DNA of 64,000 bases from Deltaproteobacteria bacterium (GTDB taxonomy: Bacteria; Desulfobacterota; Binatia; HRBIN30; CADEER01): positions 4,885 through 68,884 of the forward strand of contig JAJCZJ010000105.1 of the NCBI GenBank assembly GCA_029262455.1. The letters run 5' to 3'. Below, piece after piece: positions 2,480 to 49,214 of this stretch (its first letter is position 1; every line of letters starts with the position of its first letter). The notes under the pieces were generated by a model. It was given only the letters and a program-made list of their open reading frames with translations. It made no database searches and had not been told where the DNA came from. A program made the position numbers and the translations under genes.

Positions 2480-2642
2480 AGCGCTACGGGGTACAGTAAC
2501 TGGAGGCAGCTTTGCATCGTCCGGAACGAAAATCCGGTGGGTGCGGTTGCGCAAATAGCAATACGTAGTGTACTTCGGGACACTTGGTTTGAAAGGTAGG
2601 CAACGCAAAACGCGCGTGCTTGCCAAGGAAAGGAGACGGGTG

Positions 2643-3881: not shown

Positions 3882-3942
3882 TTACGGGTGACGGAGAGAA
3901 GCCATGGTGTTTTCGTCGAGAGGTGAGGAAAGGAGTCAAGTG

Positions 3943-12113: not shown

Positions 12114-13694
12114 TCACTTCGCTTCCTTCCCGGCGCAAAGGTCCAAAGCGCGGCGTCGTAGTTCGCTGCGATCGACTTTACCGCTGCCCAGTGTCGGGAC
12201 AGCCCCGGGCTCGAGTTCGAAGAAGTGGCGTGGGACCTTGTAGGTGGCAAGAACTTTCCCGCAGTGATCGAGGAGGGCGGTTCGATCGAAATTTTCGTTT
12301 GCCGACACGATGAAGGCAGCTACGTTTTCTCCGCGGATGCGATCCGGGACGGGGACGACGTATGCACTCTCGATGTCGGGGTGTTGCTGTAGTGCCTGCT
12401 CAACCTCAGCGGCGGCGACGTTGACCCCGGCACTTTTGATGACATCGCCGAGCCGGCCGAGAAAGTGTAGGTGCCCGGTGTCGTCAAGGCGCCCGCGATC
12501 GCCGGTGTGGAAGTACCCGTCGGGGTCAAAAGCATCACCGTCTATTTGTCCGTAGTAGCCGCGCATCAGGCTGTCACCACGCACGAGAACCTCTCCCGCG
12601 GTGCCGGACGGCGCGTGCGATCCATCGTTCGCCGCGATGCGGATCTCGAGACCGGGCATTGGCCTGCCGTGCGAGCCCGCCCTCACTTCGAGCGGATCGT
12701 CGTATCCCGTGCAAGCCGCCATCGGCCCGGTTTCGCTCATCCCCCACGTGCCGACACATTGGTGGTCGTCGGCGAGGAGGGAGCGCGCCCAAGGCGCGTT
12801 GGCTCCCGGCCCTTTGTGCAGTCGCAGATTCTCGCGCCGGAAGTCGGGGTGACCGGCGATGGCCTCGGCTTGGTGGGGCCATCCGAAGAAGACCGTGCAG
12901 CCGTGCGTCTCCATCAGACGAATCGCTTCTTTGGGCGAGAAGATGTCTTGCAGGAGTAGGGCGCCGCCGCGATTGAGCGTTGCGAGAGCTACGCCGACAA
13001 GTCCTCCGTTGAAGAACATTGGCAAGTAGCCGTACGTCCGGTCGTCGTTGTCGAGACCCAATCGATGGCCGACGTTCTCCGCCGCGCGTAGCATGCTGGC
13101 ATGAGTGTGGACGACACCTTTCGGGTCGGCGGTGCTGCCGGAGGTGAAAAAGATGGCTGCGTCATCCGACCCGTGCACCGGGCCATCGTCCTCTGCTGCT
13201 TCGACTGCAGCGGCGACGGCTGCTGCCCAGTCACCGTCGGGTCCTGAGAATGCGACGCGGCGCAGGGCCGGTAGATCCCTCGTGCGTCCAGCGGCTTGGC
13301 CACCGAAGAGACGGGGGCAAATTTCGGCCAGATTCGAACGATAGTCGTGTCCCAGGAACTCGTTTTCTGCGACCACAATTTCAACCTCGGCGAGGCGCAG
13401 CGAGTGGGCCAGCTCGCGGGGGCGATAGAGGGTGTTCAGCGGTACGAGGATGGCACCGACTTGCCACGCGCCGAACGCGCACGCCAACCATTCCGGGCGG
13501 TTGGGCAGGAGCAGCCCGATGTGTGTGCCCCGACTCGCACCGATGCTGCGGAATGCTGCCGCCCGGCGCTGACTTTCGTGATGCAGGTCTTTGTAGGTCC
13601 AGGTCGTCACGCGGTCGATGAGAGCGGGCGCGTCGGGCCATTTTCTTGCCCATTCTGCGGAGACGGTGGGCAAGGTTCTGTGTTTGGAGTTCAT
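12114..13694 (-). CDS. AMP-dependent acyl-CoA synthetase/ligase
   Basis: AMP-binding motifs FTSGSTADPKGVVHTH and TWGMSETG, and the C-terminal GDRGRLDDTGHLHFLGRLGDVIKSAG block. Confidence 0.9.
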   Translation of the reverse strand: MNSKHRTLPTVSAEWARKWPDAPALIDRVTTWTYKDLHHESQRRAAAFRSIGASRGTHIGLLLPNRPEWLACAFGAWQVGAILVPLNTLYRPRELAHSLRLAEVEIVVAENEFLGHDYRSNLAEICPRLFGGQAAGRTRDLPALRRVAFSGPDGDWAAAVAAAVEAAEDDGPVHGSDDAAIFFTSGSTADPKGVVHTHASMLRAAENVGHRLGLDNDDRTYGYLPMFFNGGLVGVALATLNRGGALLLQDIFSPKEAIRLMETHGCTVFFGWPHQAEAIAGHPDFRRENLRLHKGPGANAPWARSLLADDHQCVGTWGMSETGPMAACTGYDDPLEVRAGSHGRPMPGLEIRIAANDGSHAPSGTAGEVLVRGDSLMRGYYGQIDGDAFDPDGYFHTGDRGRLDDTGHLHFLGRLGDVIKSAGVNVAAAEVEQALQQHPDIESAYVVPVPDRIRGENVAAFIVSANENFDRTALLDHCGKVLATYKVPRHFFELEPGAVPTLGSGKVDRSELRRRALDLCAGKEAK

Positions 13695-13800
13695 TGAGGT
13701 AAGTGGGCCACACGTCGTGCCGCTACATCAAGAGCTGAGCCAGGGAGGGGTTGACCCGGTTGTTGAATGTAAGCCCCGCCGCTAACGTCATCCTTCGACT

Positions 13801-15090
13801 ATGGACTTCGATAGATTGTTGGATCGCCTGCGAGCCGGTTTCTTCCGAAACTTTCTCCACTTCTTGTTGTTTGCGAGCAGCGTTGCAATGTGGGCTGTTC
13901 CGGTCTGGGTAGGCCACAATCTCGGCACGTTTCGTCTCTCCTTTGGTAGCCAGGTCGCGGGCGTTCTTGCGGTGTACGGTTTGAACTGGGTCGTGCTGCG
14001 CCGACCCGGGTTGTCGCCCAGGCGCTGGTTGCGCCGTTACTCGGCGTTGGCCTTTGGCTTGCTGCTGTGTTTCGCGTTTCTCATCTTCACGACGGTCGTT
14101 TTTAGTGCCGGGCGCGCGGTTCTTGCGGTCGTGGATCCAGATCTCGCCCTCTTGGCGACGACTGCTGAGCAAGCCGTCGGTTTGGCGGGCGTTGCGACGA
14201 TCTTGGGATTGCTTGTGTTTGGCTATACCGGGGGGCAGCGCCAGCTGCAGATCAACCACGTGCCGATTTCGATGCCCGGGCTGGGTGGCGCGCTACGAGT
14301 TGTGCAGTTGAGTGACATTCATGTCGGTCAGAACCTTGGGTTCGAACAGCTGGTCGATTTTGTGGAGAGAGTGAATGCGCTGGACCCCGACTTGGTGATT
14401 CTAACCGGCGATATCGCCGATGGACCGAAATCTGATCTCGAACGGTTTTTTCCGGTGTTGGGCGGGATTCGCGCGCGTCATGGAACCTTGGCGATTCTCG
14501 GCAATCACGATCACAACGCCGGTGCGGACCGAGTCGAGGCCGCACTGGTCGAGGTTGGCATCGACGTGCTGCGGGACCGGGCGACGACGCTCGATCTCGA
14601 CGGGTGCGTGTTGCATGTGATGGGACTCGACGATCGCGGGCCCGACTGGGCACGTGGTTACCGGGAAGACTTGACTCTCGGCCGGTTGTTGGCAGAAGCC
14701 CCACCGGAGGTGCCGCGGCTTTTGCTGGTGCATCGTCCCGATGTCTTTCGGCAGGCCGCCGAGCTCAAGGTGAACCTGACTCTGTCCGGGCACACGCACG
14801 GAGGGCAGCTGGCGTTGCCCTGGTTTGGTGGTCGTCGTCGCAATCTGGCCGAGTTTGTCACCAAGTTTGATCGCGGATTGTTTCGCGCCGGTGAATCCTC
14901 GCTCTATGTCAACTGCGGTCTCGGTGTCACTGCGCAACGGATTCGGTTGTTTACGCCGCGAGAGATCACGGTTCTCGATCTTGCCGCGGTGTCGGTAGGG
15001 GGCGAGATCGAAGTGGAACCGAGACTGCGCCGTGTGATTCAATCACACGGCGCAATGTGGCGGCGAAGCGGAGCCGGTCGAGTCGCATAG
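13801..15090 (+). CDS. Membrane-anchored calcineurin-like metallophosphoesterase
   Basis: N-terminal TM helices followed by phosphoesterase motifs LSDIHVG, GDIAD, GNHDH and GHTHGGQ. Confidence 0.85.
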   Translation: MDFDRLLDRLRAGFFRNFLHFLLFASSVAMWAVPVWVGHNLGTFRLSFGSQVAGVLAVYGLNWVVLRRPGLSPRRWLRRYSALAFGLLLCFAFLIFTTVVFSAGRAVLAVVDPDLALLATTAEQAVGLAGVATILGLLVFGYTGGQRQLQINHVPISMPGLGGALRVVQLSDIHVGQNLGFEQLVDFVERVNALDPDLVILTGDIADGPKSDLERFFPVLGGIRARHGTLAILGNHDHNAGADRVEAALVEVGIDVLRDRATTLDLDGCVLHVMGLDDRGPDWARGYREDLTLGRLLAEAPPEVPRLLLVHRPDVFRQAAELKVNLTLSGHTHGGQLALPWFGGRRRNLAEFVTKFDRGLFRAGESSLYVNCGLGVTAQRIRLFTPREITVLDLAAVSVGGEIEVEPRLRRVIQSHGAMWRRSGAGRVA

Positions 15091-15931
15091 CACCTCGTCG
15101 CAGGAGGGTGGTGTTGCCAGGATCCCAGAGCAGGACCGGTTTTCCGCGAGACAGGGCTTCGAGGCAGATCGACTCGACTGTGCCGCCCTTGCGGGCGCTG
15201 GTAACGAAGATCACATGCCCTAGCGCGGCGATCAGTTCATCACGCCTTCTGCCGTTGTTGGGTGCTGCGTGGTCCTCTGGTCGAAACGGAGACAGCGCGA
15301 GCGCCGTGTCCCGGTCGAATACGGTGCGACTCACACCGCTGCCGAATGGGTCGCGTCGATAATCTCCATTGAATGCTGTGAATAAGCCCCGATCGAGGAC
15401 GACGATGCGGTTGGCGTTGATTGCGCGTGCGGATATCGCGGCGAGCCGGTGGGTGGTCTTCATCCCACCGACCGCCAGGACGAGGTTCAGGGTACGGGCG
15501 GTTCGTATGGCCGTCACGATCGCTTGAACTGTGTCTTCGAGAATCTCTCGGGAGCTCAAAATGGCCAGGCAGGGACTGTTGAGCAGCGTCCGGTTTCCGA
15601 GAGTGAATATCAGCGGTGGCGTATGCCTTAGGTCGGAGTGGAAGCGGCTAGGGAATCCGGGTGAGTCCGGCGACAGGGCGCGCGCCCCGACGCGGTCTAG
15701 TTGGTCGACGATTCGTCGACATCGATCCATGTGCTCCGATCGCTGTGAGATCAGGCGACGGATGGCGTCGGTGGGTAGTCGGTAGAATCGCGCAAGGTGT
15801 TCCGGTGATGCTGCCAAGACCGATTCGGGAGAGGTGTTCGACACCGACGCCTGCGACTGAAGTCGTGCGAGAATTCGCTCACCTACCCCGGGTAGTTCTC
15901 TGATCGCCACCCATGCCGACGTGCGTCGCAT
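14966..15931 (-). CDS. dprA: DNA-processing protein DprA/Smf family
   Basis: N-terminal LPGVG helix-hairpin-helix-like region, then a Rossmann-like domain (FPSRF...PPLIFTLGN..LLNSPCLAILSSREI...). Overlaps the convergent phosphoesterase gene by 125 nt. Confidence 0.7.
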   Translation of the reverse strand: MRRTSAWVAIRELPGVGERILARLQSQASVSNTSPESVLAASPEHLARFYRLPTDAIRRLISQRSEHMDRCRRIVDQLDRVGARALSPDSPGFPSRFHSDLRHTPPLIFTLGNRTLLNSPCLAILSSREILEDTVQAIVTAIRTARTLNLVLAVGGMKTTHRLAAISARAINANRIVVLDRGLFTAFNGDYRRDPFGSGVSRTVFDRDTALALSPFRPEDHAAPNNGRRRDELIAALGHVIFVTSARKGGTVESICLEALSRGKPVLLWDPGNTTLLRRGAMRLDRLRFAATLRRVIESHGAVSVPLRSRPLPTPRQDREP

Positions 15932-15983
15932 GGTCTAGCTATGTAGTACTATTTTAGATAGCTGTAAAGAGTACCCGGTTACA

Positions 15984-16292
15984 TCAGGACAGGGGACGCG
16001 TCTTGTCGTAGGATGGTCCTCGATCGTCGCGCAGTCGTTCGAAGTCCCTTTCCGCCTCGCGAAAGACCCGTTGCTTTCGCTGGGCGAGGCCATAGAGCGC
16101 CATCAGCCCGGCGAGCACCGCGATAGCGGTGCGCGGGTGTTCGCGAATCCAGACGAGTATTTCTATGGCCGCATCCATCGGGATTGCTGCCAGGTTACCT
16201 CGGCAATGCTGTGCATCAAGCGTCAAATCGCCTGATCGTATTGATTTGTAACAATATGCAGCAAAGTGACCGGCCGCTGCATCCCGTAACAA
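15984..16292 (-). CDS. Hypothetical small membrane protein
   Basis: One predicted TM helix (AIAVLAGLMALYGL). No homology recognised; it may be non-coding. Confidence 0.25.
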   Translation of the reverse strand: MLRDAAAGHFAAYCYKSIRSGDLTLDAQHCRGNLAAIPMDAAIEILVWIREHPRTAIAVLAGLMALYGLAQRKQRVFREAERDFERLRDDRGPSYDKTRPLS

Positions 16293-16399
16293 GATGAGTC
16301 ATCGCTGCAACCTCTGTGGACGCCTGTTTGGCGATTGCAATGCGGAATCGCATGGCTATATAGGTGCAGCCGTTGGTTCGTGATGAGGGGTGGATCTTG

Positions 16400-18913
16400 A
16401 TGATGAAGTGGGGGCGCTTCAGCTCACTGGCACGCGTCGCTGGCTTGCTGGCTTGCCTGAGCTTGCCGGTAGTCGCAGTCGGGCAGGAAGTAGCCGGGGA
16501 CGCGAATTGCGACCAAGTCGTGGATGCCAGCGACTTGAACGACTTGGCGACCGCGGTCTTTGAAGGCAGCGATTGCCTGACGGCCGACGTCAATGAGGAT
16601 GGCGGACTGAGTGCCGCTGACTTGATTGCGCTGGTTTTCGCGCTAGATGCGACCCAGGTTACCGCCACCCCAACCGAGACGGAAGGACTCAATCCTACCG
16701 ATACTCCCACTGAGACTGGGGGCCCCGATCCGACCGAAACTCCGACCGAGACGGGCACGGAAGTGCCTGAAACTGAGACCCCAACCTCGACGGTGACTCC
16801 AACAGCAACGAGGATTCCGACGCCAACGGCGACGCGAATGCCGACTGCCGATGGCCCGACGCCGACGCCGCCGGCGACTTTCACGGCCAGCGCGACCCCG
16901 ACCGCGACGCGTACCGATACCAATACGCGGACGCCCTCGCAGACCGCGACTCCGTCCAATACCCAGACGCCGACGCGGACGGGCACACCGACGCGCACAG
17001 GCACCTCGACGCGGACGCCAACCGTGACCCGGACGCCACCTCCGACGCGTACTCCAACGCGTACCGGAACGACGACGCGCACGCGGACGCCGTCGCGCAC
17101 CGGCACTCCGACGCGAACCCAGACCGCGACGCGTACGCCACCGCCAACGTTTACCTCAACACGTACCGGAACGACGACGCGCACGCGGACGCCGTCGCGC
17201 ACCGGCACTCCGACGCGAACCCAGACCGCGACACGTACGCCACCGCCAACGTTCACCGCAACACGTACCGGAACGCCGACGCGCACACGGACGCCGACGC
17301 GCACCGGCACTTCGACGCGCACCACGACAAGGACCCGTACGGGTACGTTGACCCCGACGCCCTCTCGCACAGGGACCTCGACGCGCACGCGCACGGGGAC
17401 GCGTACCTGGACTCCGAGTCGCACGCCGACCGGAACCCGCTCATTTACCGCGACTCGTTCGCCGATCGGTACTCTGACTCCAACGCGGACGGGGACGTCG
17501 AGCCGTACGCCGACGTTGACGGGCACGCCGACCGGAACCCGTACCCCGACTGGGACACGCACGGCGACGAGTACGGGCACCCGGACGCGTACGGGGACGC
17601 CGACCCGCAGCGCCACGCCGACCCGGACGAATACCTCGACCAGGACCTCGACTGGCACGCCGACCAATACTCGGACTGGCACGGCCACACGAACCCATAC
17701 GGGAACCAGGACGCCGACGCCCACGCGTACCCCGATCGGGACCAACACCGCGACGCGGACCCAGACGTTTACGCGGACGCAAACCCACACGCGTACAGCG
17801 ACCTTGACGCGTACGCCGACTGGTACGAGAACGCCGAGCGCCACCCTTACGTCGACCCGGACCGGGACTCAGACACGCACGCCGACGGCCACTCGCACGC
17901 ACACCTTCACTCGCACGAATACGCCGACGCGGACGTCCACCGGCACGCGAACTTCGACCAGAACTGGGACATCGACGCGGACCTTTACGCTTACGCGAAC
18001 TCCTACTGGAACCAGAACCTGGACGCCGACCCGTACCTCGACCGGCACGCCTACTTCGACGCGTACGCGGACGTTCACGCGCACCCAGACGTTTACAAAT
18101 ACCCCGACACTCACTCAGACCCCGGTGTTTTCGTTCACGCCGAGCCAGACCGGCACACCGACGCAAACGGGAACCAATACACTGACTCCATCGCAAACGG
18201 GTACGCCGACGCAGACTGGTACTCCGACGTCAACCACCGACCGCATTGGTCCGCCCGTGGTTGCGTTTCAGGCCGTGCGTCAGAACGGATGTCCCGGGTG
18301 CTGCAATTTCAGCTGCCGGCTGACCCCGACGCCGACGCCAGAATTCGACGCCGAAGGGCGTCCGGTCTTCAATACCAATGACCGATTCTTGTTGGTGGTC
18401 GAGACCTCGGTCGGGCAGTCGGTGCTGCATGCCGGTAGTCAAGGCGTGATGGTGGGTGACGACGTTGACGACATCACCCACTCGAGTGGGCGCCCGTCCC
18501 TTCAACTGCTTGCCTCAATGGATCTCGGCAACGGCAGTAGCCAGGTTTGCGATGGATCCCCAGTGAATCCTCCAGGCGGCGTCCCGGGCTTCGCTCCTCC
18601 GATCATAGACTGTGATGATCCCGATCTGACACCGGCCCAACAACTCGCTTGCCAGTCGCAGGAGTCAGAGGTCACTGACGCCCTGGTCGATGTCGCGTGT
18701 CGATTTGCTTTCGTCACTTCAGAGGGCAACGCCTGCACAAAGAATCCGTTCGGGGACTTTGCTTTTCTGGCGGATAACACGACCCGACAGTATTGCTTTC
18801 AGATCCCAACCGATTCGCAGCTGCCGGCCGGTGAGACGGTTCTAAAAGTCCAAGCCAGAGATGGTGCCGGATTCCTCGGTCCAGCCAGCGAGATCGTCAT
18901 CCGCGTACCATAA
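16400..18913 (+). CDS. Secreted Thr/Arg/Pro-repeat (TRT) protein 1 with N-terminal dockerin-like repeats and conserved C-terminal domain
   Basis: Signal peptide [28 protein letters not shown]. Two dockerin-like repeats ([21 protein letters not shown] and [20 protein letters not shown]). About 550 aa of (T-R-T-[PG]-T) low complexity. C-terminal ~210-aa Cys-containing domain homologous to the C-terminus of TRT2, ending ...IVIRVP. Confidence 0.8.
17060..17263 (+). repeat. Near-perfect 102-bp tandem duplication inside TRT1 gene (34-aa unit [32 protein letters not shown][ST])
   Basis: Direct reading: units at 17060-17161 and 17162-17263 differ at only a few positions. They lie within a larger ~1.6-kb ACG/CGT-periodic low-complexity region (~16650-18240). 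Confidence 0.85.
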
Positions 18914-19140
18914 GAACTTCGCGCCGGCCGACAGCGGTCTTTCGACAGACTGGCCCGGTTGCCGAAATCCTCAACCAAAGCCGGGGCGTTCCCTCCAGTT
19001 TCGCGCCTTGGCAGTGCGCTGAAATCCTCGTTTTCGCTCGCTCGCCGGTTTTTCAACGGACGGCTCGAGGCCACTTTGTGGAAGAGCTCTGTCCCCATGC
19101 CCGGGTGGCGGCGCTCATGGCTCACTGCCAAGCGACCATT

Positions 19141-19185
19141 TAGCTTTCCAAAAGCCTACCAATTAGCTTGCCAGAAGCTTACCAA
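19141..19185 (+). promoter_or_regulatory. Imperfect 22-bp direct repeat pair (TAGCTTKCCARAAGCYTACCAA x2)
   Basis: tagctttccaaaagcctaccaa / tagcttgccagaagcttaccaa, separated by 1 nt and matching at 18 of 22 positions. They sit ~135 nt upstream of the shared promoter motif of the P3-P6 operon. Confidence 0.45.
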
Positions 19186-19311
19186 GCCCCTATGGTCCCG
19201 TTGCAGAAGATCGGTTTTTTCCCCATTACTCGGATGTAGTGCAAAAATCCCTTTCCTCTGTCGAAACCTATGTCATTATTGAGCATGCCAACGGAAAAAC
19301 CGTCCCCCGAC

Positions 19312-19327
19312 CTTTTTCCGCTTGACA
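19312..19327 (+). promoter_or_regulatory. Promoter-like motif CTTTTTCCGCTTGACA (contains -35 TTGACA) upstream of P3-P6 operon
   Basis: TTGACA at 19322-19327 with a 17-nt spacer to AATAAC. Same motif as at 2465-2479. Confidence 0.5.
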
Positions 19328-19418
19328 GGCCCGGACTAAACTGGAATAACGCCGACGGGTTCGAATGCGAAGTCACCGAACTCATATGCAGGCTGCAGTG
19401 AAAAAAAGGAGGCGTGCA

Positions 19419-20801
19419 ATGCGATTGCTGGAGCGAAACCCGCGGCTGACGGGCACTATCATGGGACTAGCGGTATTAGCCCTTGTTGGTGCGCAGGCCC
19501 AGGCGCAGGATCTTGAAATTACCTCAACCGAACCCGGGTCGATCGTTCTGTATCCGAAGGTTATCTCCGACGGTACCCGGGACACGATCATCTCACTCAC
19601 CAATACCTCGAACATGGTTGTGTACGCGCACTGCGTTTACACCAACGGTATCGGTCAGTGCAGTGCGTCGCCCGACCCGGCCAACCAGATCTACTACTGC
19701 AACACCTTTGATGACTGTCAGGGTGTGACGCCGCCGGGATCGACAGGCCCGCCGATTGATGTCGGTACCTGTAACCTGTTGTGGCAAGCGATTGACTTCG
19801 ACGTCACGCTGACCGCGCAGCAGCCGACTTTCTGGCGTGTGTCGACCGGACGTGTGCAGGATCCTGCACTCCAGTTCGGTGTCGATTGCGCCGCGTCGGG
19901 AAACAGTCAGATTTGTCCGGGTTTCTTCATCGGCGACTCGATCGCCGGAAGTAACGTGCCCGGTCAAAACGGTTTTCGCGGCGAATTGCGTTGCTATCAA
20001 GTCATGGAAGACGGCGACCTGCTACCCGCGGACGCTCTCAAGGGCGAGGCGTTCATCGAAAGCCTAGCTCTCGGCGGCGATCCGCCGGCTCCTGGCAACG
20101 GACGCATCAGCGGTTACAACTCGATCAATGTCGAGGGTTTCGGCGAAGGCACAGCCGATCCAGCCGTCGCTTCATTGGACGGAACTGAGTATGCGCGCTG
20201 TCCCGACGCTGTCGGCCTTGACTATCTCCACCCGGGCGTCCCGGAGCCGTCAACTGGCGCCGACGTGGATGTGGAGCTCACCTTCATTCCGTGTACGGCC
20301 AATCAGGATGGCCAGACGGGATTCTCGGTGCAGCTGTTCACCTTTGACGAGTTCGAAACCAGGCAATCTCAGGGTATCCCTGCGGTCTGTTGGTCGAACG
20401 TCAACGGCGACAGCCTGAACCTCACTGCCAACCCGACGACCACATACCTACGGTCGGAGGCGCAGCAGACTCTTGGCTCCGGAAACTGTCAGGGCGGAAA
20501 CCCGACAGGCTTCGGCTGTTTCGCCGACTCCGACTGCGGCGGCGAAGGCATCTGTAACAACGGAAGCTGCCAGGGCGGTGATTCGACAGGCCGCGTCTGT
20601 ACGAACGTCACGCAGTGTGGCCCGGGCGCAACCGCCTGTAATATTCCTGGTACGTCGTTCTTGGCCCTCGTTGAAACCATCTACTCAGGTGGGACTCCGG
20701 GTGGTTCGAACGCCGACGTCGGTTACGAGCTCGTTCCGGGCACAACCGACGACTCAATGGGCTTCATCGGGAACTTTCCCGATCCGAACCCGGTGCCGTA
20801 A
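19419..20801 (+). CDS. Secreted Cys-rich protein, novel paralogous family member P3
   Basis: AGGAGG RBS 6 nt before the ATG. Signal peptide MRLLERNPRLTGTIMGLAVLALVGAQAQA. Motifs IVLYPKV, DTIISLTNTSN, AHCVYT, DFDVTLTAQQP, GELRCYQ, LKGEAF, YNSINV, LTFIPC, FDEFETRQS, and a CFADSDCGGEGICNNGSCQGG insert. It is the most divergent member. Confidence 0.8.
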   Translation: MRLLERNPRLTGTIMGLAVLALVGAQAQAQDLEITSTEPGSIVLYPKVISDGTRDTIISLTNTSNMVVYAHCVYTNGIGQCSASPDPANQIYYCNTFDDCQGVTPPGSTGPPIDVGTCNLLWQAIDFDVTLTAQQPTFWRVSTGRVQDPALQFGVDCAASGNSQICPGFFIGDSIAGSNVPGQNGFRGELRCYQVMEDGDLLPADALKGEAFIESLALGGDPPAPGNGRISGYNSINVEGFGEGTADPAVASLDGTEYARCPDAVGLDYLHPGVPEPSTGADVDVELTFIPCTANQDGQTGFSVQLFTFDEFETRQSQGIPAVCWSNVNGDSLNLTANPTTTYLRSEAQQTLGSGNCQGGNPTGFGCFADSDCGGEGICNNGSCQGGDSTGRVCTNVTQCGPGATACNIPGTSFLALVETIYSGGTPGGSNADVGYELVPGTTDDSMGFIGNFPDPNPVP

Positions 20802-20833
20802 CGGCTGCGTCAGGAAAGAAAGGGGAAACTCGA

Positions 20834-21994
20834 ATGTCTAGCAAGACGACAATCGCAATAATCGCCTCAGCGGCCGCTGGCTCGTTGATGATAGCTTCGG
20901 TCGCTACTGCTGCGCCGACCCACGACAAGCCCGCGGGTCTCGTGATCTACCCGAAGATCCAAGTGAGCAGTGCTGACGGTCTCGATACCCGTATGCATCT
21001 GTCGAACACTTCCGGGCTTCCGCAGATGGCTCACTGCTTCTATGTGAATGCAAACAGCCACTGCACGAATAACGGAAACGTCTGCGACACATTCCTCGAT
21101 TGCGAGGACACTGCGTCCGGTACATTCGGGTCGTGTGAAGCGGGCTGGATCGAGACCAATTTCGACATCTTCCTCACGGCGGAGCAGCCAATCGGTTGGC
21201 TCGCCTCCGAGGGTCTGTCGGTCAACGACCTTCCGTGTCGTGCGACTTTCCAAAACCCCAACCCGTGCATCGGTGGTGACAACAACGGTACGCGCATCCC
21301 GCCTGTCGAGGATCCATTCATCGGCGAGCTGAAGTGTATCCAGGCCGACTCAGTTACTCGTCTGCCAGTGGCCTGTGACGGCGACAACTGCCGCAACGAT
21401 CTCACGGGTAAGGCAGTGATCATGTCTTCTAGTCTCCTCGACGGTGCTTCGTACCCGGCGGCCGGTCTCCGGCAGGTCCGCAACGATGGCGGCAATGATC
21501 TCCAGGTCGGCGGCGACTCCGGTTCAGTCGAGTACGAAAACTGTGCCGAGGTTCTCGTCATGGACTTCGTCTACGACGGTGCCACCGATCCGATCTCGGG
21601 CACGCTGCAGGGCCAATCTCAGCTGACCCTGGTTCCTTGCACTCAGGACTTTCGCGGACAGACCACCGACGCGGTCACCGCACAATTCCTCGTTTACAAC
21701 GAATTCGAGCAGCGCCTCTCGACGAGTCGTCGTGTTGAATGTTTGCTCGATTCTCAGATCTCTCTGATTGACACGTCTCAGCCCAATCGCTCGATCTTCT
21801 CTTTCCCGATCGGCGGTACCATTACAGGGCAAGCTCGTATTCGTGGCGTCGGTGGCGGTCTCGCAGGGGTCGCAGTTCTCGGGTTAGCCACGAACTGGTT
21901 GGACCCAGACAACGACACCCGTCAGGGCTTGGCCGGGTATGCTCTCGACTCAGTCGTAGACACGTCAACTCCGGACATTATCTCACTACCGTAG
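20834..21994 (+). CDS. Secreted Cys-rich protein, novel paralogous family member P4
   Basis: Signal peptide MSSKTTIAIIASAAAGSLMIASVATAA. Motifs LVIYPKI, DTRMHLSNTSG, AHCFYVNANSHC, FDIFLTAEQP, GELKCIQ, LTGKAV, LTLVPC, AQFLVYNEFEQRLSTSRRVEC, SIFSFPIGGTITGQARIRGV. Ends ...IISLP. Confidence 0.8.
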   Translation: MSSKTTIAIIASAAAGSLMIASVATAAPTHDKPAGLVIYPKIQVSSADGLDTRMHLSNTSGLPQMAHCFYVNANSHCTNNGNVCDTFLDCEDTASGTFGSCEAGWIETNFDIFLTAEQPIGWLASEGLSVNDLPCRATFQNPNPCIGGDNNGTRIPPVEDPFIGELKCIQADSVTRLPVACDGDNCRNDLTGKAVIMSSSLLDGASYPAAGLRQVRNDGGNDLQVGGDSGSVEYENCAEVLVMDFVYDGATDPISGTLQGQSQLTLVPCTQDFRGQTTDAVTAQFLVYNEFEQRLSTSRRVECLLDSQISLIDTSQPNRSIFSFPIGGTITGQARIRGVGGGLAGVAVLGLATNWLDPDNDTRQGLAGYALDSVVDTSTPDIISLP

Positions 21995-22049
21995 CGTTTA
22001 GCTGAGAATCCGCATCAACTTGAAGAATCGATCTGTAGGAGGAACACGC

Positions 22050-23078
22050 ATGAGGACTTTCGCGGTACGTCCTGCCGTCACTGCCGGCGCATTGGGACTC
22101 GCTTTCGCTCTAGCAGCGACGAGCGCCAGCGCCCAAGATTCATACACGGTCGAGCAGCCGACCTCAGTGCTGATCTTCCCCAAGGTCGTGAACGACGAGG
22201 GGCGGGACACGGTGCTCCAGGTTACGAATAATCACAACGTGATGGTCTACGCCCACTGTTTCTACACGGACGGGCAGACCATCAACGGAGTTCCCCGTTG
22301 GACGGTGACGGATTTTCAATTGAACCTCACTCGCCAGCAGACAACGACGTGGCCTGCCAGTACCGGCCGACCGCAGAACCCAAGCGACGACCAGAACGGG
22401 ATTGACCCGGGTGGTGTGCCGCCGACGGTTGACGGTTTTACGGGCAGTTTGGTTTGCGTTCAGATCGGCTCATCGCATGGGAATCCCATAGGTGGGAACA
22501 GTCTGACGGGTCGGGCGAGCGTCGCCGGCGCGGACTACAATGCCGTCGGAATTCCGGGCATCAACGTCGATGGGGATAAAACCCTTATGTTGGACGGCTT
22601 AGAGTACGCCCGCTGTCCGTCGTCGTATCACTTGGACTTTGTTACCCCGGGTTCGGGCGGAGCGGTTGCGCTTGGCTCGATGGTCGGGTTCGGTCTGGGT
22701 GACGCTGTGGCGACAGTCAGTACGAGTTTGACGGTCGTTCCTTGTAATTACGACTTTGCGACCTTCTTCCCAGCGTCGGTCCGGTTGGGTTTTAATCCGA
22801 TTGTCGATGAGTTCGAGAATCGGAACTCGGTCGGAACGGCGGAGGACGTGGTCTGTTGGGAAAATGTACAGTTGGACAACGCTGTGTTCGAGCTTGGTCC
22901 GAGTACGTTTAATACGGCAAGGGTCAACGGTAACGACTCGACGGGAGCTGCGGCGCCTTTTGTAGGTGTGGCAAACGTCCTGAGGGTTGGCGGCACGAGC
23001 CTTGGGATGGATTCGGCTACGACGAACTTGCACGCCGTCACGGGTGCACTCGCCGATGGGCAGATTATCATCCCGTAA
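22050..23078 (+). CDS. Secreted protein, novel paralogous family member P5 (shortest; lacks Cys-rich inserts)
   Basis: AGGAGG RBS. Signal peptide MRTFAVRPAVTAGALGLAFALAATSASA. Motifs VLIFPKV, DTVLQVTNNHN, AHCFYT, DFQLNLTRQQ, YNAVGI, LTVVPC, VDEFENRNS. Ends ...QIIIP. Confidence 0.8.
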   Translation: MRTFAVRPAVTAGALGLAFALAATSASAQDSYTVEQPTSVLIFPKVVNDEGRDTVLQVTNNHNVMVYAHCFYTDGQTINGVPRWTVTDFQLNLTRQQTTTWPASTGRPQNPSDDQNGIDPGGVPPTVDGFTGSLVCVQIGSSHGNPIGGNSLTGRASVAGADYNAVGIPGINVDGDKTLMLDGLEYARCPSSYHLDFVTPGSGGAVALGSMVGFGLGDAVATVSTSLTVVPCNYDFATFFPASVRLGFNPIVDEFENRNSVGTAEDVVCWENVQLDNAVFELGPSTFNTARVNGNDSTGAAAPFVGVANVLRVGGTSLGMDSATTNLHAVTGALADGQIIIP

Positions 23079-23135
23079 GGTGTTGGACCGCTAAAGTAAG
23101 CTTGTACACTCGGACGCTTGAAAAGGAGCCAGCGA

Positions 23136-24404
23136 ATGGTCAAAGGACGAACGATTTGGAATTTCACCGCGGTTGTAGGCGCGGTTGCCTTGGTTGGCAT
23201 CGTCCTCGGCACGGTCGAACGGAGTGATGCGCAGCCACCTGATCCCGCGGATTCGACTTCTGCGGTGGTGACTGGTGGGTATCTGCACTTCCCAAAGATT
23301 CTCGTGCATACGACGGGAGACTTGGCGAACCCGGCATTAGCTGGTGACGACTTCGCGATGGACACGGTCATCCAGATTACGAACACATCGGATGTCCGGG
23401 TTACGGCCAACTGCTTTTACGTAACGGCGGTGAGCCGGTGCGGCTCGGCGACCGGCCCAGTGTGTCGGGACGATAGCGAGTGCGTGCCGGGGATTCGATG
23501 CCTTCCGACGTGGAGTTCGGATGACTTCCGGATCGATTTTACCCCGTTGCAGCCGATTGGTTGGAGCGCGGCAACCGGACTCTCGATTTTGCCATGTGGA
23601 ATCGGCGGCGTCTGTCCGGGGAATCCGGGACAGAGCGGGCAGATCCCTGTGGTTTCGGTGGATCCGTTTGTCGGTGAGTTGAGATGTATTCAAGTCGAGA
23701 CCGATGATGACGGCATGGCGACTGGGCCGACAACCGATAGCGATCTGATTGGGAAAGCTACGATTGTCGAGAGCGGCCCGTTCAGTGGACCGTCGGAGGT
23801 GCTGGCAGCGGGTTATAATGCGATCGGATTTCAGGGTGTATCGTCGGATGCCTTGGGTACAGATGCTTGCTTTGGCGGGGCACCGGCGGGTGCAAACTGT
23901 GGTGTTACCTACACGCCATGTGCGGCGCACTTGTCGCTGCAGCACTTCTTTGAAGGTGCCGAGACGCCGGCTGGATTCGTATCCACACATTTGACGTTGT
24001 CGCCGTGCAGCACGGAGTTGGAGATTGGCGACGTGTTTGCACCGTCGAATCGGGTCGTTGCGCAGATGCTCGTCTACAATGAGTTTGAGCAGCGGTTCTC
24101 GATTGCGGAACCGGTCGATTGTGTTGAGACACAGCGTCTTGTGGACATCGACACTCCAGCGGGCCCGTCGGGCGATTCTAGTTCGATCTTTTCCATCGGC
24201 ACGCAGGGGACACTGGGTGGACAGACTCGGATCAGAGGCGTTAGCGACGATTCGGGTTTCGGGCGCGGGATCGTGGGTCTAGCCCATCAGTACTTCTCGG
24301 CCTCGATGGGCGGGACGCCCACGAGTTCGTCGGCTTACCATGTAAACGGTGAGTTGGCGGCGCAGCCGGATCCGGATGCAGTTTACGGACCGCTTTTTCA
24401 GTAA
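23136..24404 (+). CDS. Secreted Cys-rich protein, novel paralogous family member P6
   Basis: AAAAGGAG RBS precedes the ATG at 23136; the track ORF begins at an earlier ATG that overlaps this RBS. Signal/TM segment WNFTAVVGAVALVGIVLG. Motifs HFPKI, DTVIQITNTSD, ANCFYV, DFRIDFTPLQP, GELRCIQ, YNAIGF, LQHFFEGAE, LTLSPC, AQMLVYNEFEQRFS, SIFSIGTQGTLGGQTRIRGV. Confidence 0.75.
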   Translation: MVKGRTIWNFTAVVGAVALVGIVLGTVERSDAQPPDPADSTSAVVTGGYLHFPKILVHTTGDLANPALAGDDFAMDTVIQITNTSDVRVTANCFYVTAVSRCGSATGPVCRDDSECVPGIRCLPTWSSDDFRIDFTPLQPIGWSAATGLSILPCGIGGVCPGNPGQSGQIPVVSVDPFVGELRCIQVETDDDGMATGPTTDSDLIGKATIVESGPFSGPSEVLAAGYNAIGFQGVSSDALGTDACFGGAPAGANCGVTYTPCAAHLSLQHFFEGAETPAGFVSTHLTLSPCSTELEIGDVFAPSNRVVAQMLVYNEFEQRFSIAEPVDCVETQRLVDIDTPAGPSGDSSSIFSIGTQGTLGGQTRIRGVSDDSGFGRGIVGLAHQYFSASMGGTPTSSSAYHVNGELAAQPDPDAVYGPLFQ

Positions 24405-24430
24405 TTAGGCGGAGTTCATACTAGATCGGG

Positions 24431-24470
24431 GAGCCGGAACGCCAGAAGGCGTTCCGGCTCTTTGTTTTTG
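24431..24470 (+). terminator. Rho-independent terminator after P6
   Basis: GAGCCGGAACGCC-agaa-GGCGTTCCGGCTC followed by TTTGTTTTTG. Confidence 0.85.
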
Positions 24471-24501
24471 AGCTCGTAGGCAGACTTCAAGGGTAGAGAC
24501 G

Positions 24502-24882
24502 ATGTCGACTAAGCGAATTCTGGTAGTTGAAGACAACCTGGATAACCGGCGTATTCTGGTGTATCGGCTGAAACGAATTGGCGAATTCGAGATCTTGGAA
24601 GCAAGTAACGGCGAGGAGGCGCTCGCGATTGTTCAGCGGGACGAACCCCCTGACCTTGTGTTCATGGATCTGAAGATGCCGGTCATGGACGGGTGGGAGG
24701 CCACGCGACAGATCCGGAAGCTCGAGGGTGGGGAGAAGATCCCGATTATCGCGTTGACGGCACAGGCGATGGCTGGCGACGAGCAGAAGGCGTTGGCCGC
24801 AGGTTGCGACGACTACCTTGCGAAGCCGATCGTCGATCTGGGTGTTGTACGGACAAAAATGGAGCGGTTGTTGGATAGGTAG
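24502..24882 (+). CDS. Single-domain response regulator (CheY-like receiver)
   Basis: ILVVEDNLDNRRIL, phospho-acceptor region FMDLKMPVMDG, and the IIALTA...YLAKP residues. 126 aa with no output domain. Confidence 0.9.
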   Translation: MSTKRILVVEDNLDNRRILVYRLKRIGEFEILEASNGEEALAIVQRDEPPDLVFMDLKMPVMDGWEATRQIRKLEGGEKIPIIALTAQAMAGDEQKALAAGCDDYLAKPIVDLGVVRTKMERLLDR

Positions 24883-24957
24883 AGCCGGGTCCGCGCTTTC
24901 CGGGGGGAAGCCGGATGGTGTCGTAGTGAGGCACGAGTTGGCGATTCGGGGGGTCGG

Positions 24958-27138
24958 TTGGAAGTAGCGCGCGTTTGCGGGCTGGTCGCATTGTGGCTGG
25001 TCTGCGGGTTTGATGTAGAAGCGTTTGGGCAGGGCGAGGGGCAGCCCTGTTCCGGGGTCACGCGTGTCGTCGCTGCCCTGTTCGATCCGGATGTTTGCGT
25101 AGCGGACGCGAACGGGGACGGACGGGTCAGCGCGGCGGATATTGTGTTCGTGGTTCGCCAGGGCGACGTCGCGACGCCGTCCCCGACGCCGACTGAGATC
25201 GGTACCACTGCGGTGGTTGATGTGACACCGACGCCGACTGCGACGGGGACACCTACGGCCGAAAGTACGGCGAGTTCTACCGCAAGTGCGACAGCGACCG
25301 GGACGCCGGGGAGAGTTCTGACGTCGACTGCGACGGCTAGTGCGACGGCTAGTGCGACGGAAGTGCCGACGGTCGTGGTCGGGACGCCGACGCAGACGGG
25401 GACCCCGACGCAGACGGGAACACAGACGCGGACGGGGACCCGTACCCGGACGTTCACTCGCACGCGGACCTTTACACGGACGCGTCCGGCGACGAGAACG
25501 CCACGAGCAACGTCGACCTCGACTCGTACGCGCACGGCGACCTTGACACGGACCCCATCGCGTACGCGGACGCCGAGTCAAACACGGACCCCATCTCGCA
25601 CCGGGACAAGTACTCGGACCTTTCGATTCTCGCGCACTCCTTCGGCGACGCGTACGATCACAGGGACGCCGACTTCGTCGCGCACCCGGACGTTTACGCG
25701 GACACGGACGTTCACGCGTACCACGACTGTAACGCGGACCAGGACCGGGACCCGAGGGCCGTCGGCGACACGAACGGTCACGTCGACGCGGACGCCGAGT
25801 CGAACCGGAACCGCGACGCGCACCAGGACCGCGACGCGCACCAGAACCGGGACGCGGGCGCCGTCGGCGACGCGCACCGTAACCTCGACGCGTACACCGA
25901 GTCGAACGGGAACCGCGACGCGCACCGGGACTGCGACGCGGACCATGACGGCAACGCGTACCATGACGGCAACCCGTACCAGGACCGGGACCCGAGGGCC
26001 GTCGGCGACGCGCACAGTCACTTCGACGCGTACACCGAGTCGGACCGGAACCGCGACGCGCACCAGAACGTTTACACGGACACCGTCCGTGTCGCGGACA
26101 CCAACGGGAACGCGAACGCAGACCGGGACTCGTACGGAGACCCGTACGCGTACGACCACACGTACAAGAACAGCCACGCGGACGGGGACAGACACTCGTA
26201 CCCCGACTGGGACGCGAACTCAGACGGGAACCAGGACGGAAACGGCGACCCGGACGGCGTCGCGCACGGGGACTGCTACGCGGACACCGACCGGTACGCG
26301 GCCTTTCACGGCGACAAGGACACCGAGCGCGACACGTACGTCGACGGGGACTCCGACGAATACTCGGACGAGGACGGCGACTCGCACGAGGACGGCTACA
26401 CGAACTCCTTCGGGGACGCGACTCCCGACGAACACGAGAACGCATACGCGTACTCGCACCTCGACTCGAACCAAGACGGCGACTCGCACATCAACGCTGA
26501 CGGGCACGCCGACGTCGACCGGAACAATCACACCGACTCCGTCGATCACGCCGACGGTTCCCACCATCGGTCCTATCGTTACAGCGTTTGGTGTCGCCCG
26601 AGCCGACGGATTGATCGTTCCGCCGAGCGGTTTCGCGCCGGGGGGATTTCCCCTGTTCATCAGGCCGGTTGCGAGTGGATTTTTTCTTTATGCCGAATTC
26701 AAGCGCCCGCCCGACTTCGCGCCGATCAATACCTCGACGTTTAACGACGATGTGTTTTCGTTGCCAGGCTTCCGGATTGCCACGGACCGTCCGCTCGGTG
26801 ATGGTAGCCCGGAGGTTTGTGATGCAGGGCCTGCGCCGTCCTTACCGATCGGAGGTGTACCGGCGATAGCCGATGGTGACTTTGGATCGAATCCACCAGC
26901 GGTGAACGACTTTTCGTGTCGATTCGACGTGAGGTCGGCCGGAGGGACGGGACCGTGCACCCGTCGCGGCAATGGTTCGGACGCCTTCGAGAACTCGGAA
27001 TCAATCCGTCAGTTTTGCACGATCGTAGGAGCGGAGGTCGCCTTCCCAGTTGGAGATACGAGGCTCACCGTCAGCGCCGTCGATCTGTTTGGTCGCCCCG
27101 GAGAGCCGGTCTCTATTGTGATTCGGATCGAACCGTAG
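24958..27138 (+). CDS. Secreted Thr/Arg/Pro-repeat (TRT) protein 2 with dockerin-like repeat and conserved C-terminal domain
   Basis: TTG start in the same frame as, and 75 nt after, the receiver gene. Signal-like MEVARVCGLVALWLVCGF. Dockerin-like DANGDGRVSAADIVFVV. About 470 aa of TRT low complexity. C-terminal domain homologous to TRT1 (IGPIVTAFGVARADG...LGDGSPEVCDAGP...GGVP...SCRF...VSIVIRIEP). Confidence 0.7.
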   Translation: MEVARVCGLVALWLVCGFDVEAFGQGEGQPCSGVTRVVAALFDPDVCVADANGDGRVSAADIVFVVRQGDVATPSPTPTEIGTTAVVDVTPTPTATGTPTAESTASSTASATATGTPGRVLTSTATASATASATEVPTVVVGTPTQTGTPTQTGTQTRTGTRTRTFTRTRTFTRTRPATRTPRATSTSTRTRTATLTRTPSRTRTPSQTRTPSRTGTSTRTFRFSRTPSATRTITGTPTSSRTRTFTRTRTFTRTTTVTRTRTGTRGPSATRTVTSTRTPSRTGTATRTRTATRTRTGTRAPSATRTVTSTRTPSRTGTATRTGTATRTMTATRTMTATRTRTGTRGPSATRTVTSTRTPSRTGTATRTRTFTRTPSVSRTPTGTRTQTGTRTETRTRTTTRTRTATRTGTDTRTPTGTRTQTGTRTETATRTASRTGTATRTPTGTRPFTATRTPSATRTSTGTPTNTRTRTATRTRTATRTPSGTRLPTNTRTHTRTRTSTRTKTATRTSTLTGTPTSTGTITPTPSITPTVPTIGPIVTAFGVARADGLIVPPSGFAPGGFPLFIRPVASGFFLYAEFKRPPDFAPINTSTFNDDVFSLPGFRIATDRPLGDGSPEVCDAGPAPSLPIGGVPAIADGDFGSNPPAVNDFSCRFDVRSAGGTGPCTRRGNGSDAFENSESIRQFCTIVGAEVAFPVGDTRLTVSAVDLFGRPGEPVSIVIRIEP
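25735..26080 (+). repeat. About three tandem ~100-140-bp repeats inside TRT2 (unit TRTGTR[GA][22 protein letters not shown]...)
   Basis: AGGACCGGGACCCGAGGGCCGTCGGCGAC recurs at 25741 and 25981, with a diverged copy near 25851. Confidence 0.75.
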
Positions 27139-35343: not shown

Positions 35344-35433
35344 GCGGGAACTGGGCGGTCGTTCGGCGCAAGTTGGGGTGCGGGGTTGGTCCCGATCGGT
35401 TGCTCTGGTAGTGACGGTTGTTTGCCCCTTCTC

Positions 35434-37860: not shown

Positions 37861-38089
37861 CAGGCCGCCGATCTCCCCGTCCGCGGCGATGGATCTCTAG
37901 TGGGTTTGGTCACCCCCTGCGGGAGCGCGACGGACGGCTAGGTTGTTTGCCTGTGCAGCGTGAAATCTGTCGCGTTTCTCGCTATGAACAAAGGTTCTAG
38001 GCATCGGGGGTTTGCTCGGTGCTTATGGGGAAAATGCCAATCGAAGTGATACGACGGCGTTGGTCGTCGGTCGGGAGGAACTTAATCAG

Positions 38090-38608
38090 ATGAGAATTTT
38101 GCTTATGGCCGTTGTGGCGGCTGTCTTGATCGGTGCTCCGGCGGCGGAAGTTTCAGCCCAAGACATCCGGGTTGGGACGATCAACTTGCAGCGCGCGCTC
38201 AACGAATCGAGCGCCGGCAAGGCTGCCAAGGTCAAGTTCAAGGAGCAGCTCGATCGGTTGCAGCGCGACCTCGAACGCCAGAAGAGTGAGGTTGATGCTC
38301 TCAAGGACCAGCTGGCGAAAAAGGCCCTGGTGATGAAGGCAGATGAGCGCCGCAACCTGGAGATGGACTACCAGCGCAAGGCACGAGAATTCGAAAGAGC
38401 CTACGAAGACTCGCAGGGCGAGTTGCAGCTGAAGGATTCAGAGATGACTCGCGACCTGTTGAAGGAGTTACAGCAGGTGATCCAGGAGTACGGCCGGCGC
38501 GGTGGCTACACCGTGATCCTCGAGCAGGCCGGCGGTGCGTTGTTGTACGGCGCCGCGCATATCGACGTCACCGACGCGATCATCGCCGAGTTCAACCAGA
38601 AGCGCTAG
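38090..38608 (+). CDS. skp: Periplasmic chaperone Skp/OmpH
   Basis: Signal peptide MRILLMAVVAAVLIGAPAAEVSAQ, then IRVGTINLQRALNESSAGKAAK and a long coiled-coil. Located after bamA. Confidence 0.9.
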   Translation: MRILLMAVVAAVLIGAPAAEVSAQDIRVGTINLQRALNESSAGKAAKVKFKEQLDRLQRDLERQKSEVDALKDQLAKKALVMKADERRNLEMDYQRKAREFERAYEDSQGELQLKDSEMTRDLLKELQQVIQEYGRRGGYTVILEQAGGALLYGAAHIDVTDAIIAEFNQKR

Positions 38609-38621
38609 GCGGGCATCGGGC

Positions 38622-39401: not shown

Positions 39402-39422
39402 TTGTCGCGGGAGCGTGATTGA

Positions 39423-49144: not shown

Positions 49145-49214
49145 GGGTAAGTTCAACCTCGCGGAACTAGTGTTGTTGCGCAAGCAAACCGCGCGGGGCT
49201 ATTGTCGGGCCGTC

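Follow-up and report, generated by a model that had tools for sequence, protein, structure and literature searches.

We analysed a stretch of 64,000 nucleotides (nt) from contig JAJCZJ010000105.1 of a Deltaproteobacteria bacterium (GenBank assembly GCA_029262455.1), whose nearest named relatives are Candidatus Binatia metagenome-assembled genomes (MAGs). Below, "the window" means this whole stretch, and all unlabelled coordinates are window positions. The window is chromosomal DNA of a diderm bacterium, with a guanine-plus-cytosine (GC) content of about 61%. Between 16400 and 27138 it carries seven plus-strand genes: one that we call TRT1 (16400-18913), four secreted paralogues, a CheY-like receiver gene, and TRT2 (24958-27138). 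TRT1 and TRT2, both taken from a list of open reading frames (ORFs), are the subject of this report. Orthologues of TRT1 occur in the related records L001, L005, L006, L007, and L008, and orthologues of TRT2 in L001, L005, and L006.

Architecture of TRT1 and TRT2

The TRT1 product has 837 amino acids (aa; 88 kDa) when read from the ATG at 16400, which has a ribosome-binding-site-like GAGGGG 8-13 nt upstream and is the most likely start; from a GTG in frame at 16364 the product would have 849 aa. TRT2 starts with TTG at 24958, preceded by a G-rich run resembling a ribosome-binding site, and encodes 726 aa (76 kDa). At 726-837 aa and 76-88 kDa these are not the "giant" proteins of the original prediction, which was wrong on this point. 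Its outline of signal peptide, dockerin-type repeats, low-complexity spacer, and shared C-terminal domain is confirmed in both ORFs. The TRT1 signal peptide (16400-16486) is of the Sec type, with a cleavage site placed by eye before a Gln and with equivalent n, h, and c regions in the orthologues; that of TRT2 (24958-25029) would be cleaved after EAFG, also placed by eye. No match was obtained when the products of the window, sense and antisense, were looked up by exact sequence, a result that alternative starts and included stops make uninformative.

After the signal peptide, TRT1 has a dockerin-type module (16493-16648) with two EF-hand-like segments, each a loop (16499-16534 and 16586-16621) followed by a helix; the loop starts are 29 residues apart, and the module contains a Cys pair (NCD...GSDC). 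TRT2 has the equivalent of half a dockerin (25030-25164), in which a Cys-bracketed helix leads into the one Ca loop, DANGDGRVSAAD (25105-25140), with another helix after it. The predicted counts of two repeats in TRT1 and one in TRT2 are therefore both borne out by the sequence, and the two-segment organization that characterizes dockerins is found in TRT1 alone, the loop DANGDGRVSAAD of TRT2 being preceded by a helix that lacks one. Against the Pfam profile Dockerin_1 (PF00404; 57 positions, gathering cut-off 22.9 bits), TRT1 scored 15.0-18.3 bits over positions 1-52 (best E 0.0026) and TRT2 14.9-18.6 bits over positions 35-54 only, both below the cut-off, and the same half-profile match recurred in TRT2 orthologues. 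Relatives do pass the cut-off, including the L006 orthologue of TRT1 (30.2 bits), P0164 (28.9 bits), and P0143 (25.3 bits), and P0014 has a precomputed PF00404 assignment. The claim of a dockerin-like N-terminus is thus supported for TRT1, on its full-profile match and the scores of its orthologues, and holds in TRT2 only for half a dockerin with one loop. Both proteins may bind Ca and dock through this region.

The low-complexity spacer that follows is 540 aa long in TRT1 and 476 aa in TRT2. The prediction of a T-R-T spacer of about 500 aa was right for these whole lengths, but the Arg-rich core covers only 365-420 aa, and the N-terminal part ahead of it is acidic or neutral (TPTETEG...). In TRT1, a composition scan places this T/P/E-rich, acidic to neutral part at 16649-16903 and the core at 16904-18163 (420 aa, residues 169-588; 46% Thr, 15% Arg, net charge +64). 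The TRT2 core lies at 25408-26502 (365 aa, residues 151-515; 44% Thr, 22% Arg, net charge +77). The cores are strongly polycationic in this genome, as had been proposed, in contrast to the acidic modules flanking them (pI 4.0-4.5). They contain 0-1 Lys, 1-3 Asp plus Glu, and no Cys, and hydrophobic residues are almost absent; Pro and Gly make up about 12-18% and sit at the X positions of the (Thr-X)n pattern without a fixed phase.

The alternation itself is strict. In the cores, 86-89% of Thr residues have another Thr at i+2, against a fraction of 0.44-0.46 in shuffled sequences (sd 0.03), and only 3% stand directly beside another Thr. The X residue is most often Arg, followed by Pro and Gly at similar frequency and then by Ser or Ala. 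Arg had been described as appearing every second or third residue, which is inaccurate: it occupies X positions and recurs most often every sixth residue, with Arg-Arg gaps of exactly 6 at a frequency of 0.40-0.59 against an expected value of about 0.12, a level that none of 5000 shuffles reached. Apart from the two spacers, no (T-X)n tract of at least 5 units was found in any frame of the 64-kb window.

At the DNA level the spacers are mostly non-identical, with Tandem Repeats Finder (TRF) matches of 61-86% and weak arrays of 18, 24, 36, and 54 nt. Superimposed on this, the TRT1 core contains a 102-bp (34-aa) tandem duplication in 3.7 copies at 16967-17341, and the TRT2 core contains 102-bp and 138-bp tandem duplications at 25714-26129. 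These recent duplications point to the mode by which spacer length changes. The Thr codons of the spacers (ACG 0.46-0.48, ACC 0.26-0.32, ACA 0.08-0.15, ACT 0.12) mirror those of housekeeping genes (0.45, 0.38, 0.08, and 0.09 in the same order), which argues that Thr is kept at the protein level and that the spacer is not a single-codon microsatellite.

Both proteins end in a domain that TRT1 and TRT2 share at about 30-36% identity over some 220 aa. In TRT1 it comprises 225 aa with 10 Cys (18236-18910), including an N-terminal Cys cluster; the TRT2 version (191 aa, 4 Cys; 26563-27135) is without this cluster and belongs to the commoner subtype of the family. All of the motifs quoted in the original prediction were found, namely IGPPVVAF in TRT1 and IGPIVTAF in TRT2, LGDGSPEVCD in TRT2, GGVP, ACRF or SCRF, and a terminal VIRV.P or VIRI.P, and the domain is shared, conserved, and unannotated, as it had stated. 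Neither copy has a match in Pfam, NCBIfam, or the sequences of the PDB, or belongs to a curated Ig-like family (PKD, fn3, Big_x). An exhaustive profile search placed the domain in at least 608 representative clusters, 318 of them at E <= 1e-30, and in many members an N-terminal dockerin is followed by 2-4 copies of it, connected by 40-150 aa of T/P/S/R-rich linker. Structure prediction, which had been proposed as a check, gave a model of moderate confidence that superposes on the Ig-like beta-sandwich, a superfold of seven to nine strands, at 5-16% identity to the hits. The most conserved feature is the loop LG[ND]GSxxVCD...GGVPG, which is probably a ligand- or partner-binding head.

Which strand is translated

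The spacer DNA has the form (ACN-SSN)n, and two antisense frames (VRVGV..., and an Arg-rich frame) are also largely open. Antisense ORFs arising from the repeat lie on the minus strand at 16216-17844 (VRVGV), 17441-18196, 24487-26445, 24813-25535, 25578-26195, and 26220-26660. If these were the real genes, the plus-strand readings across the spacers would be accidental, a possibility that the original prediction had itself named as grounds for refutation. Two of the ORFs are long (542 and 652 aa), and public gene calls have picked their equivalents in the records from JGI (L001, 8578-9999), NCBI (L002, 7855-9984; L006, 5460-6743), and ENA (L005, 6056-7729 and 14371-15852), all on the minus strand. 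Scoring by codon position and synonymous usage failed to pick a strand, as wobble positions are common to the sense and VRV antisense frames, which such statistics cannot separate.

Consequently, we decided the strand by counting stop codons over 12 homologous spacers from six genomes. The sense frame, which connects the dockerin with the C-terminal domain, is free of stops in all 12, while each of the five other frames is interrupted in most of them. Whatever the spacer length, it is the sense frame that joins signal peptide and dockerin to the conserved domain, whereas the antisense products lack a signal and any domain and show homology to nothing outside the repeat. Relatives with short linkers prove that dockerin and domain are fused in the sense frame: only about 30 aa lie between the two in P0014, and in P0015 the domain directly follows the signal peptide. 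The plus frame is the real gene, and the antisense VRVGV ORFs are repeat by-products; the challenge to plus-strand translation is answered, and a reading of these ORFs as genes is already effectively refuted. In every related record inspected, the true genes have been cut to their last ~200 aa. This truncation explains why most of the proteins returned by our first word-indexed search had 150-300 aa.

Short-read contigs break at the spacers (L004, 4.7 kb; P0001, 2.2 kb), as might be expected if the low-complexity stretch were a collapsed or chimeric repeat or part of a decaying pseudogene. However, intact frames with the same architecture occur in independent assemblies, on contigs of 4.77 Mb and of 699, 321, 179, and 112 kb, and the mostly non-identical spacer DNA also speaks against an artefact. 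Among the short-read assemblies of the same organism, L004 (a Logan contig) holds just the four paralogues and P0001 only the C-terminal domain of TRT1.

Conservation of the spacer among relatives

To compare spacer traits we used the 12 genes of TRT architecture in six genomes, referred to here as class A. Spacer length ranges from 368 to 660 aa in all 12, and shorter linkers occur elsewhere, so the proposed comparison of lengths did reveal variation: about 30 aa in P0014, 40-150 aa in relatives with several domain copies, and 90-111 aa in the class B proteins described below. Thr alternation is mostly 0.77-0.86 in class A, falling to 0.56 in the two genes of L002, a hot-spring Binatia MAG (GCA_026004215.1). 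Asp plus Glu make up 1-4% of these spacers, against 12% of housekeeping proteins, and every one of them has a net positive charge. The orthologous spacers cannot be aligned in sequence. Their sole alignable element is a short, hydrophobic TP[VILM]F[ST][FL]TPS motif located 30-45 aa before the domain in TRT1 of the window and its orthologues in L001, L005, and L006, with three copies in L006; in the window it appears as PVFSFT (18122-18139), near the distal end of the spacer. What is found is a Thr-rich linker between extracellular modules, of variable length and unconserved sequence.

Arg content is more variable. It ranges from 4 to 20% among class A spacers, with net charges of +7 to +77; in most orthologues it is close to the 8.4% average of the proteome, and the window and L005 represent the extremes. 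Arg enrichment driven by GC was considered and rejected, given that Arg and genomic GC are uncorrelated (r = -0.11). Within a genome, the spacer of TRT2 type invariably has a higher Arg content than that of TRT1 type, and this pattern, independent of GC, makes simple mutational drift unlikely. The 6-residue rhythm of Arg, with its multiples 12 and 18, is significant in 10 of the 12 spacers, including ones with little Arg.

Tracts of this type are also found outside class A. Class B (L010-L015 and P0164) combines a signal peptide, the domain, a (T-X)n linker of 90-111 aa, a CarboxypepD_reg-like module, a dockerin-like module, and a C-terminal region of ~115 aa with sub-significant similarity to cohesins (Pfam E 0.11; best PDB profile match 2xdh, E 0.32). 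A search with the spacer itself as query left 13 marginal matches after the composition correction of HMMER. Unrelated secreted proteins also carry TRT-type tracts, either as a linker or as a tail; examples are one that resembles a beta-propeller, one with RCC1 repeats, and one with a weak cohesin match. The last of these (P0297; L016, 10001-10897) is a small protein with a weak Pfam cohesin match and the tail TRTPTLTRTRSSTRTPSLTRTKTSTRTRT, on a contig binned to the candidate phylum OLB16, which indicates that such linkers are not restricted to Binatia; it adjoins an FG-GAP/Ig-rich protein of 2388 aa. The original description of the Thr/Arg spacer as highly unusual was overstated. TRT composition is a lineage-typical linker style, an ordinary linker of the family, and it is the exceptional length, together with the Arg density seen here, that stands out. 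Dockerins seem to be in common use among the secreted proteins of the Binatia lineage. L002 encodes two further proteins that end in a Cys-flanked dockerin after a T/P linker, one of 1151 aa with polymorphic-membrane-protein-like repeats (12869-16324) and one of 695 aa with RCC1-like repeats (17192-19279).

Neighbouring genes and genome setting

The seven-gene locus is conserved in at least four genomes. The order DprA, small ORFs, TRT1, four paralogues, receiver, and TRT2 recurs in L001 (a 112-kb contig), L005 (the 4.77-Mb contig, ERZ25072999), and L006 (Binatia GCA_050247415.1), while L002 has two tandem genes of TRT architecture instead. The four secreted paralogues (19365-20801, 20834-21994, 22020-23078, and 23118-24404) always lie between TRT1 and TRT2. 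They are mutually homologous, with 27-39% identity to the first one, many conserved Cys, and an invariant EFE-R-S motif. Their family, for which Pfam has no model, numbers at least 457 proteins, most of them from Binatia-like MAGs. Their N-terminal half models as a TM1070/ASRT-like beta-sandwich and their C-terminal half is poorly modelled; the first paralogue also has a Cys-rich DUF7107 insert at residues 385-425. The 450-nt gap between TRT1 and the first paralogue contains a 23-bp tandem repeat in 2.2 copies (19135-19196), and the only promoter-like match upstream of the paralogue operon overlaps it.

Directly after the fourth paralogue is a strong intrinsic terminator on the plus strand (24427-24464; 17-bp stem with 11 G-C pairs and a T-run), which separates the four-paralogue unit from the receiver gene and TRT2. 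The locus therefore has at least three transcription units. The receiver (24502-24882, plus strand; 126 aa) stands alone, matches Pfam Response_reg at E 8e-26, and is present in L001, L005, and L006.

Elsewhere the window encodes BamA, a LolC/E-like permease, LysRS, RelA/SpoT, MutL, ThiI, and a lipid A cluster. An outer-membrane biogenesis block at 35386-47150 comprises BamA, LpxA, LpxI, a GFO/IDH/MocA oxidoreductase, LpxB, an MsbA-like ABC exporter, and LpxK, and these lipid A genes confirm a diderm envelope with lipopolysaccharide (LPS). Together with a family 2 glycosyltransferase at 48272-49183, the lipid A genes are housekeeping genes unrelated to the TRT locus. Two adjacent plus-strand ORFs of 437 and 460 aa (2568-3881 and 3904-5286) have no Pfam match at E <= 1e-5, and an Rfam scan of the window gave no RNA family.

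Discussion

Our preferred reading, which we hold to be rather probable, is that TRT1 and TRT2 are modular proteins that a Binatia-type diderm exports through Sec, each consisting of an anchor, a stalk, and a head. The dockerin-type module would be the docking end, through which the protein would be held by a partner with its gene at another site in the genome. The middle would be an extreme expansion, to 476-540 aa from the 40-150 aa of relatives, of the (Thr-X)n interdomain linker of this clade. As a non-globular, acid-depleted, and net cationic stalk with a T-R-T-x-T-x rhythm, which appears to grow by duplication of 34-46-aa blocks, it would most likely act as a long extended tether. By analogy with other bacterial Thr/Pro linkers, its Thr residues may be O-glycosylated; no locus-specific glycosyltransferase was found next to the TRT locus. 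Selection acts on the length, alternation, and lack of acidic residues of the spacer and not on its exact sequence. At a distance from the anchor, the head, a predicted disulfide-rich Ig-like beta-sandwich, would use its conserved loop to bind a ligand or partner. Because the two genes bracket the four paralogues and an orphan receiver in a conserved locus, TRT1 and TRT2 probably work with these neighbours in one extracellular or envelope structure.

Several observations weigh against this tether reading. The dockerin scores of the window's own proteins are under the Pfam cut-off, and TRT2 has one loop only. No cohesin partner was found among the approximately 39 window ORFs scanned; the search for one suggested in the original prediction was thus unsuccessful within the window, and the four paralogues were rejected for this role, as their predicted fold is the TM1070/ASRT-like sandwich and not that of a cohesin. 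A Sec signal peptide indicates export to the periplasm of a diderm and no further; a surface location is putative. The model of the C-terminal domain is of moderate confidence, with the conserved loop as its least confident part (predicted local distance difference test, pLDDT, <50 at residues 98-122), and the fold search gave generic Ig-like matches only, from which no specific function could be derived. Finally, an inert tether has no need for a conserved 6-residue period of Arg, and the spacer may do more.

The last of these points is central to an alternative that we consider doubtful, in which the Arg-periodic, Thr-rich core is itself the functional element, a polycationic ribbon that binds LPS, exopolysaccharide (EPS), extracellular DNA (eDNA), or polyphosphate and glues the protein or cell to a matrix, with the end modules as accessories. 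The net charges of +64 and +77, the near absence of Lys, Asp, and Glu, and the acidic end modules all fit such a ribbon, as do the acid depletion and positive charge of all 12 spacers, the significance of the Arg spacing in 10 of them even where Arg is scarce, the consistent excess of Arg in TRT2-type spacers irrespective of GC, and the ability of the organism to make lipid A and LPS. However, genes that agree in architecture and locus differ in Arg content (4-20%) and in net charge (+7 to +77), most orthologues have ordinary Arg levels, and TRT-type tracts serve as short generic linkers in relatives and in unrelated proteins, including the one from OLB16. A period of 6 can also come from concerted evolution of an 18-nt unit, for which there are weak 18-nt arrays. 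Binding of polyanions by the spacer, as suggested in the original prediction, is therefore not backed by conservation. The conserved acid depletion and Arg rhythm argue for some electrostatic role, which is possible; the ten-fold variation in charge and the use of such tracts as ordinary linkers argue against polyanion binding as the defining function, and it is possible without being required. The two views overlap, as a tether can be sticky. A bolder and more speculative version, to which we would give somewhat less credence, is that the spacer is a new functional polymer, a Thr-faced, Arg-studded cationic ribbon that zips onto LPS O-chains, EPS, or eDNA and, with the four paralogues and the receiver, forms an unrecognized Binatia-specific system of surface or matrix assembly.

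It is very unlikely that the (T-X)n spacer instead folds into a regular beta-solenoid or ribbon that has a flat, all-Thr face for binding to the surface of ice, minerals, or crystalline polysaccharide. Such a fold would suit the strict TXT alternation and the rhythm of six residues, and Thr has a high beta-propensity. However, residues for a hydrophobic core are almost absent, Pro and Gly (about 12-18%) are unphased, and there is no conserved coil period of 12-19 residues, only the weak 18/24/36/54-nt arrays and the recent 102/138-nt duplications. Orthologous spacers are also unalignable and variable in length, and the same type of sequence serves as linkers of 40-110 aa. Membership among the TXT-type ice-binding solenoids was rejected on similar grounds, the spacers having a 6-residue Arg rhythm and 34/46-aa duplications only, and no Cys. 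For the reasons given above, antisense genes and an assembly artefact or decaying pseudogene are both so unlikely that they hardly need consideration.

If we retain the reading as anchor, stalk, and head, some aspects of TRT1 and TRT2 have precedents. Dockerin-bearing modular proteins and Thr-rich linkers are well known. A survey by Peer et al. in 2009 reportedly covered dockerin-bearing proteins outside cellulosomes. Such non-cellulosomal PF00404 proteins resemble the TRT proteins in their signal peptide, duplicated Ca loop and helix (as in TRT1), and low-complexity linkers, and in needing no catalytic domain. The TRT proteins differ in the N-terminal position of the dockerin, in scores below the cut-off, in the single loop of TRT2, and in their host, an uncultured LPS-making diderm and not a cellulolytic Firmicute. 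A further comparison is with the multi-copy relatives (P0142, P0143, P0145, and P0150), which are homologues (profile E down to 1e-171) with the same dockerin, domain, and T/P/S/R linkers. They have 2-4 domains and linkers of 40-150 aa, whereas each TRT protein has one domain and a single linker of 476-540 aa and is encoded in a seven-gene locus.

Other alternating or Thr-rich spacers are similar in style. The PT box linkers of bacterial glycoside hydrolases, such as CenA and Cex from Cellulomonas fimi, are O-glycosylated and extended; like the TRT spacers, which are presumed to be extended and flexible, they have Thr in dipeptide alternation between extracellular modules and a variable, duplication-driven length. 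In contrast, the TRT spacer is 10-20 times longer, its commonest partner residue is Arg and not Pro, its net charge reaches +64 and +77, and it has a 6-residue Arg rhythm. The periplasmic spacer of TonB, of the form (Glu-Pro)n-(Lys-Pro)n and about 70 aa long with acidic and basic halves, is also a charged, rigid or extended run of alternating dipeptides, which in a diderm envelope separates a C-terminal binding domain from its anchor, but it is Pro-based and anchored in the membrane rather than by a dockerin, and there is no sequence relationship. The serine-rich repeat adhesins (SraP and GspB) and other mucin-like bacterial stalks are Gram-positive proteins with an LPXTG motif, accessory Sec export, dedicated glycosyltransferases, and Ser in place of Thr, and the window has none of these. 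Membership of that group was rejected: the TRT proteins end in the Ig-like domain without LPXTG, no accessory Sec or glycosyltransferase genes lie beside the locus, the repeat is Thr-X, and the host is a diderm.

Members of Binatia (Binatota) occur worldwide and are uncultured, and to our knowledge nothing is known of their cell surface. In the literature we found no link between Binatia and dockerins, and none of the features described here is mentioned in PMC8262859, a paper on Binatota genomics. What is new is the combination of an N-terminal dockerin or half-dockerin, a linker 10-20 times the usual length, a cationic T-R-T-x-T-x rhythm, a large uncharacterized Ig-like family, and a seven-gene locus. 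Across (T-X)n linkers, gene callers systematically choose the antisense strand and cut the real genes short, and assemblies from short reads break at these places. Public databases consequently hold spurious antisense proteins and miss real dockerin proteins, and the dockerin surface proteins of the Binatia lineage are therefore under-counted. The locus defines two unannotated families, that of the C-terminal domain (at least 608 clusters) and that of the four paralogues (at least 457 proteins), as well as a lineage-typical linker grammar of (Thr-X)n with periodic Arg. If the cationic ribbon is functional, it would offer a simple and designable polyanion-binding motif, and a real cohesin similarity in class B would mean that members of this family could dock with each other.

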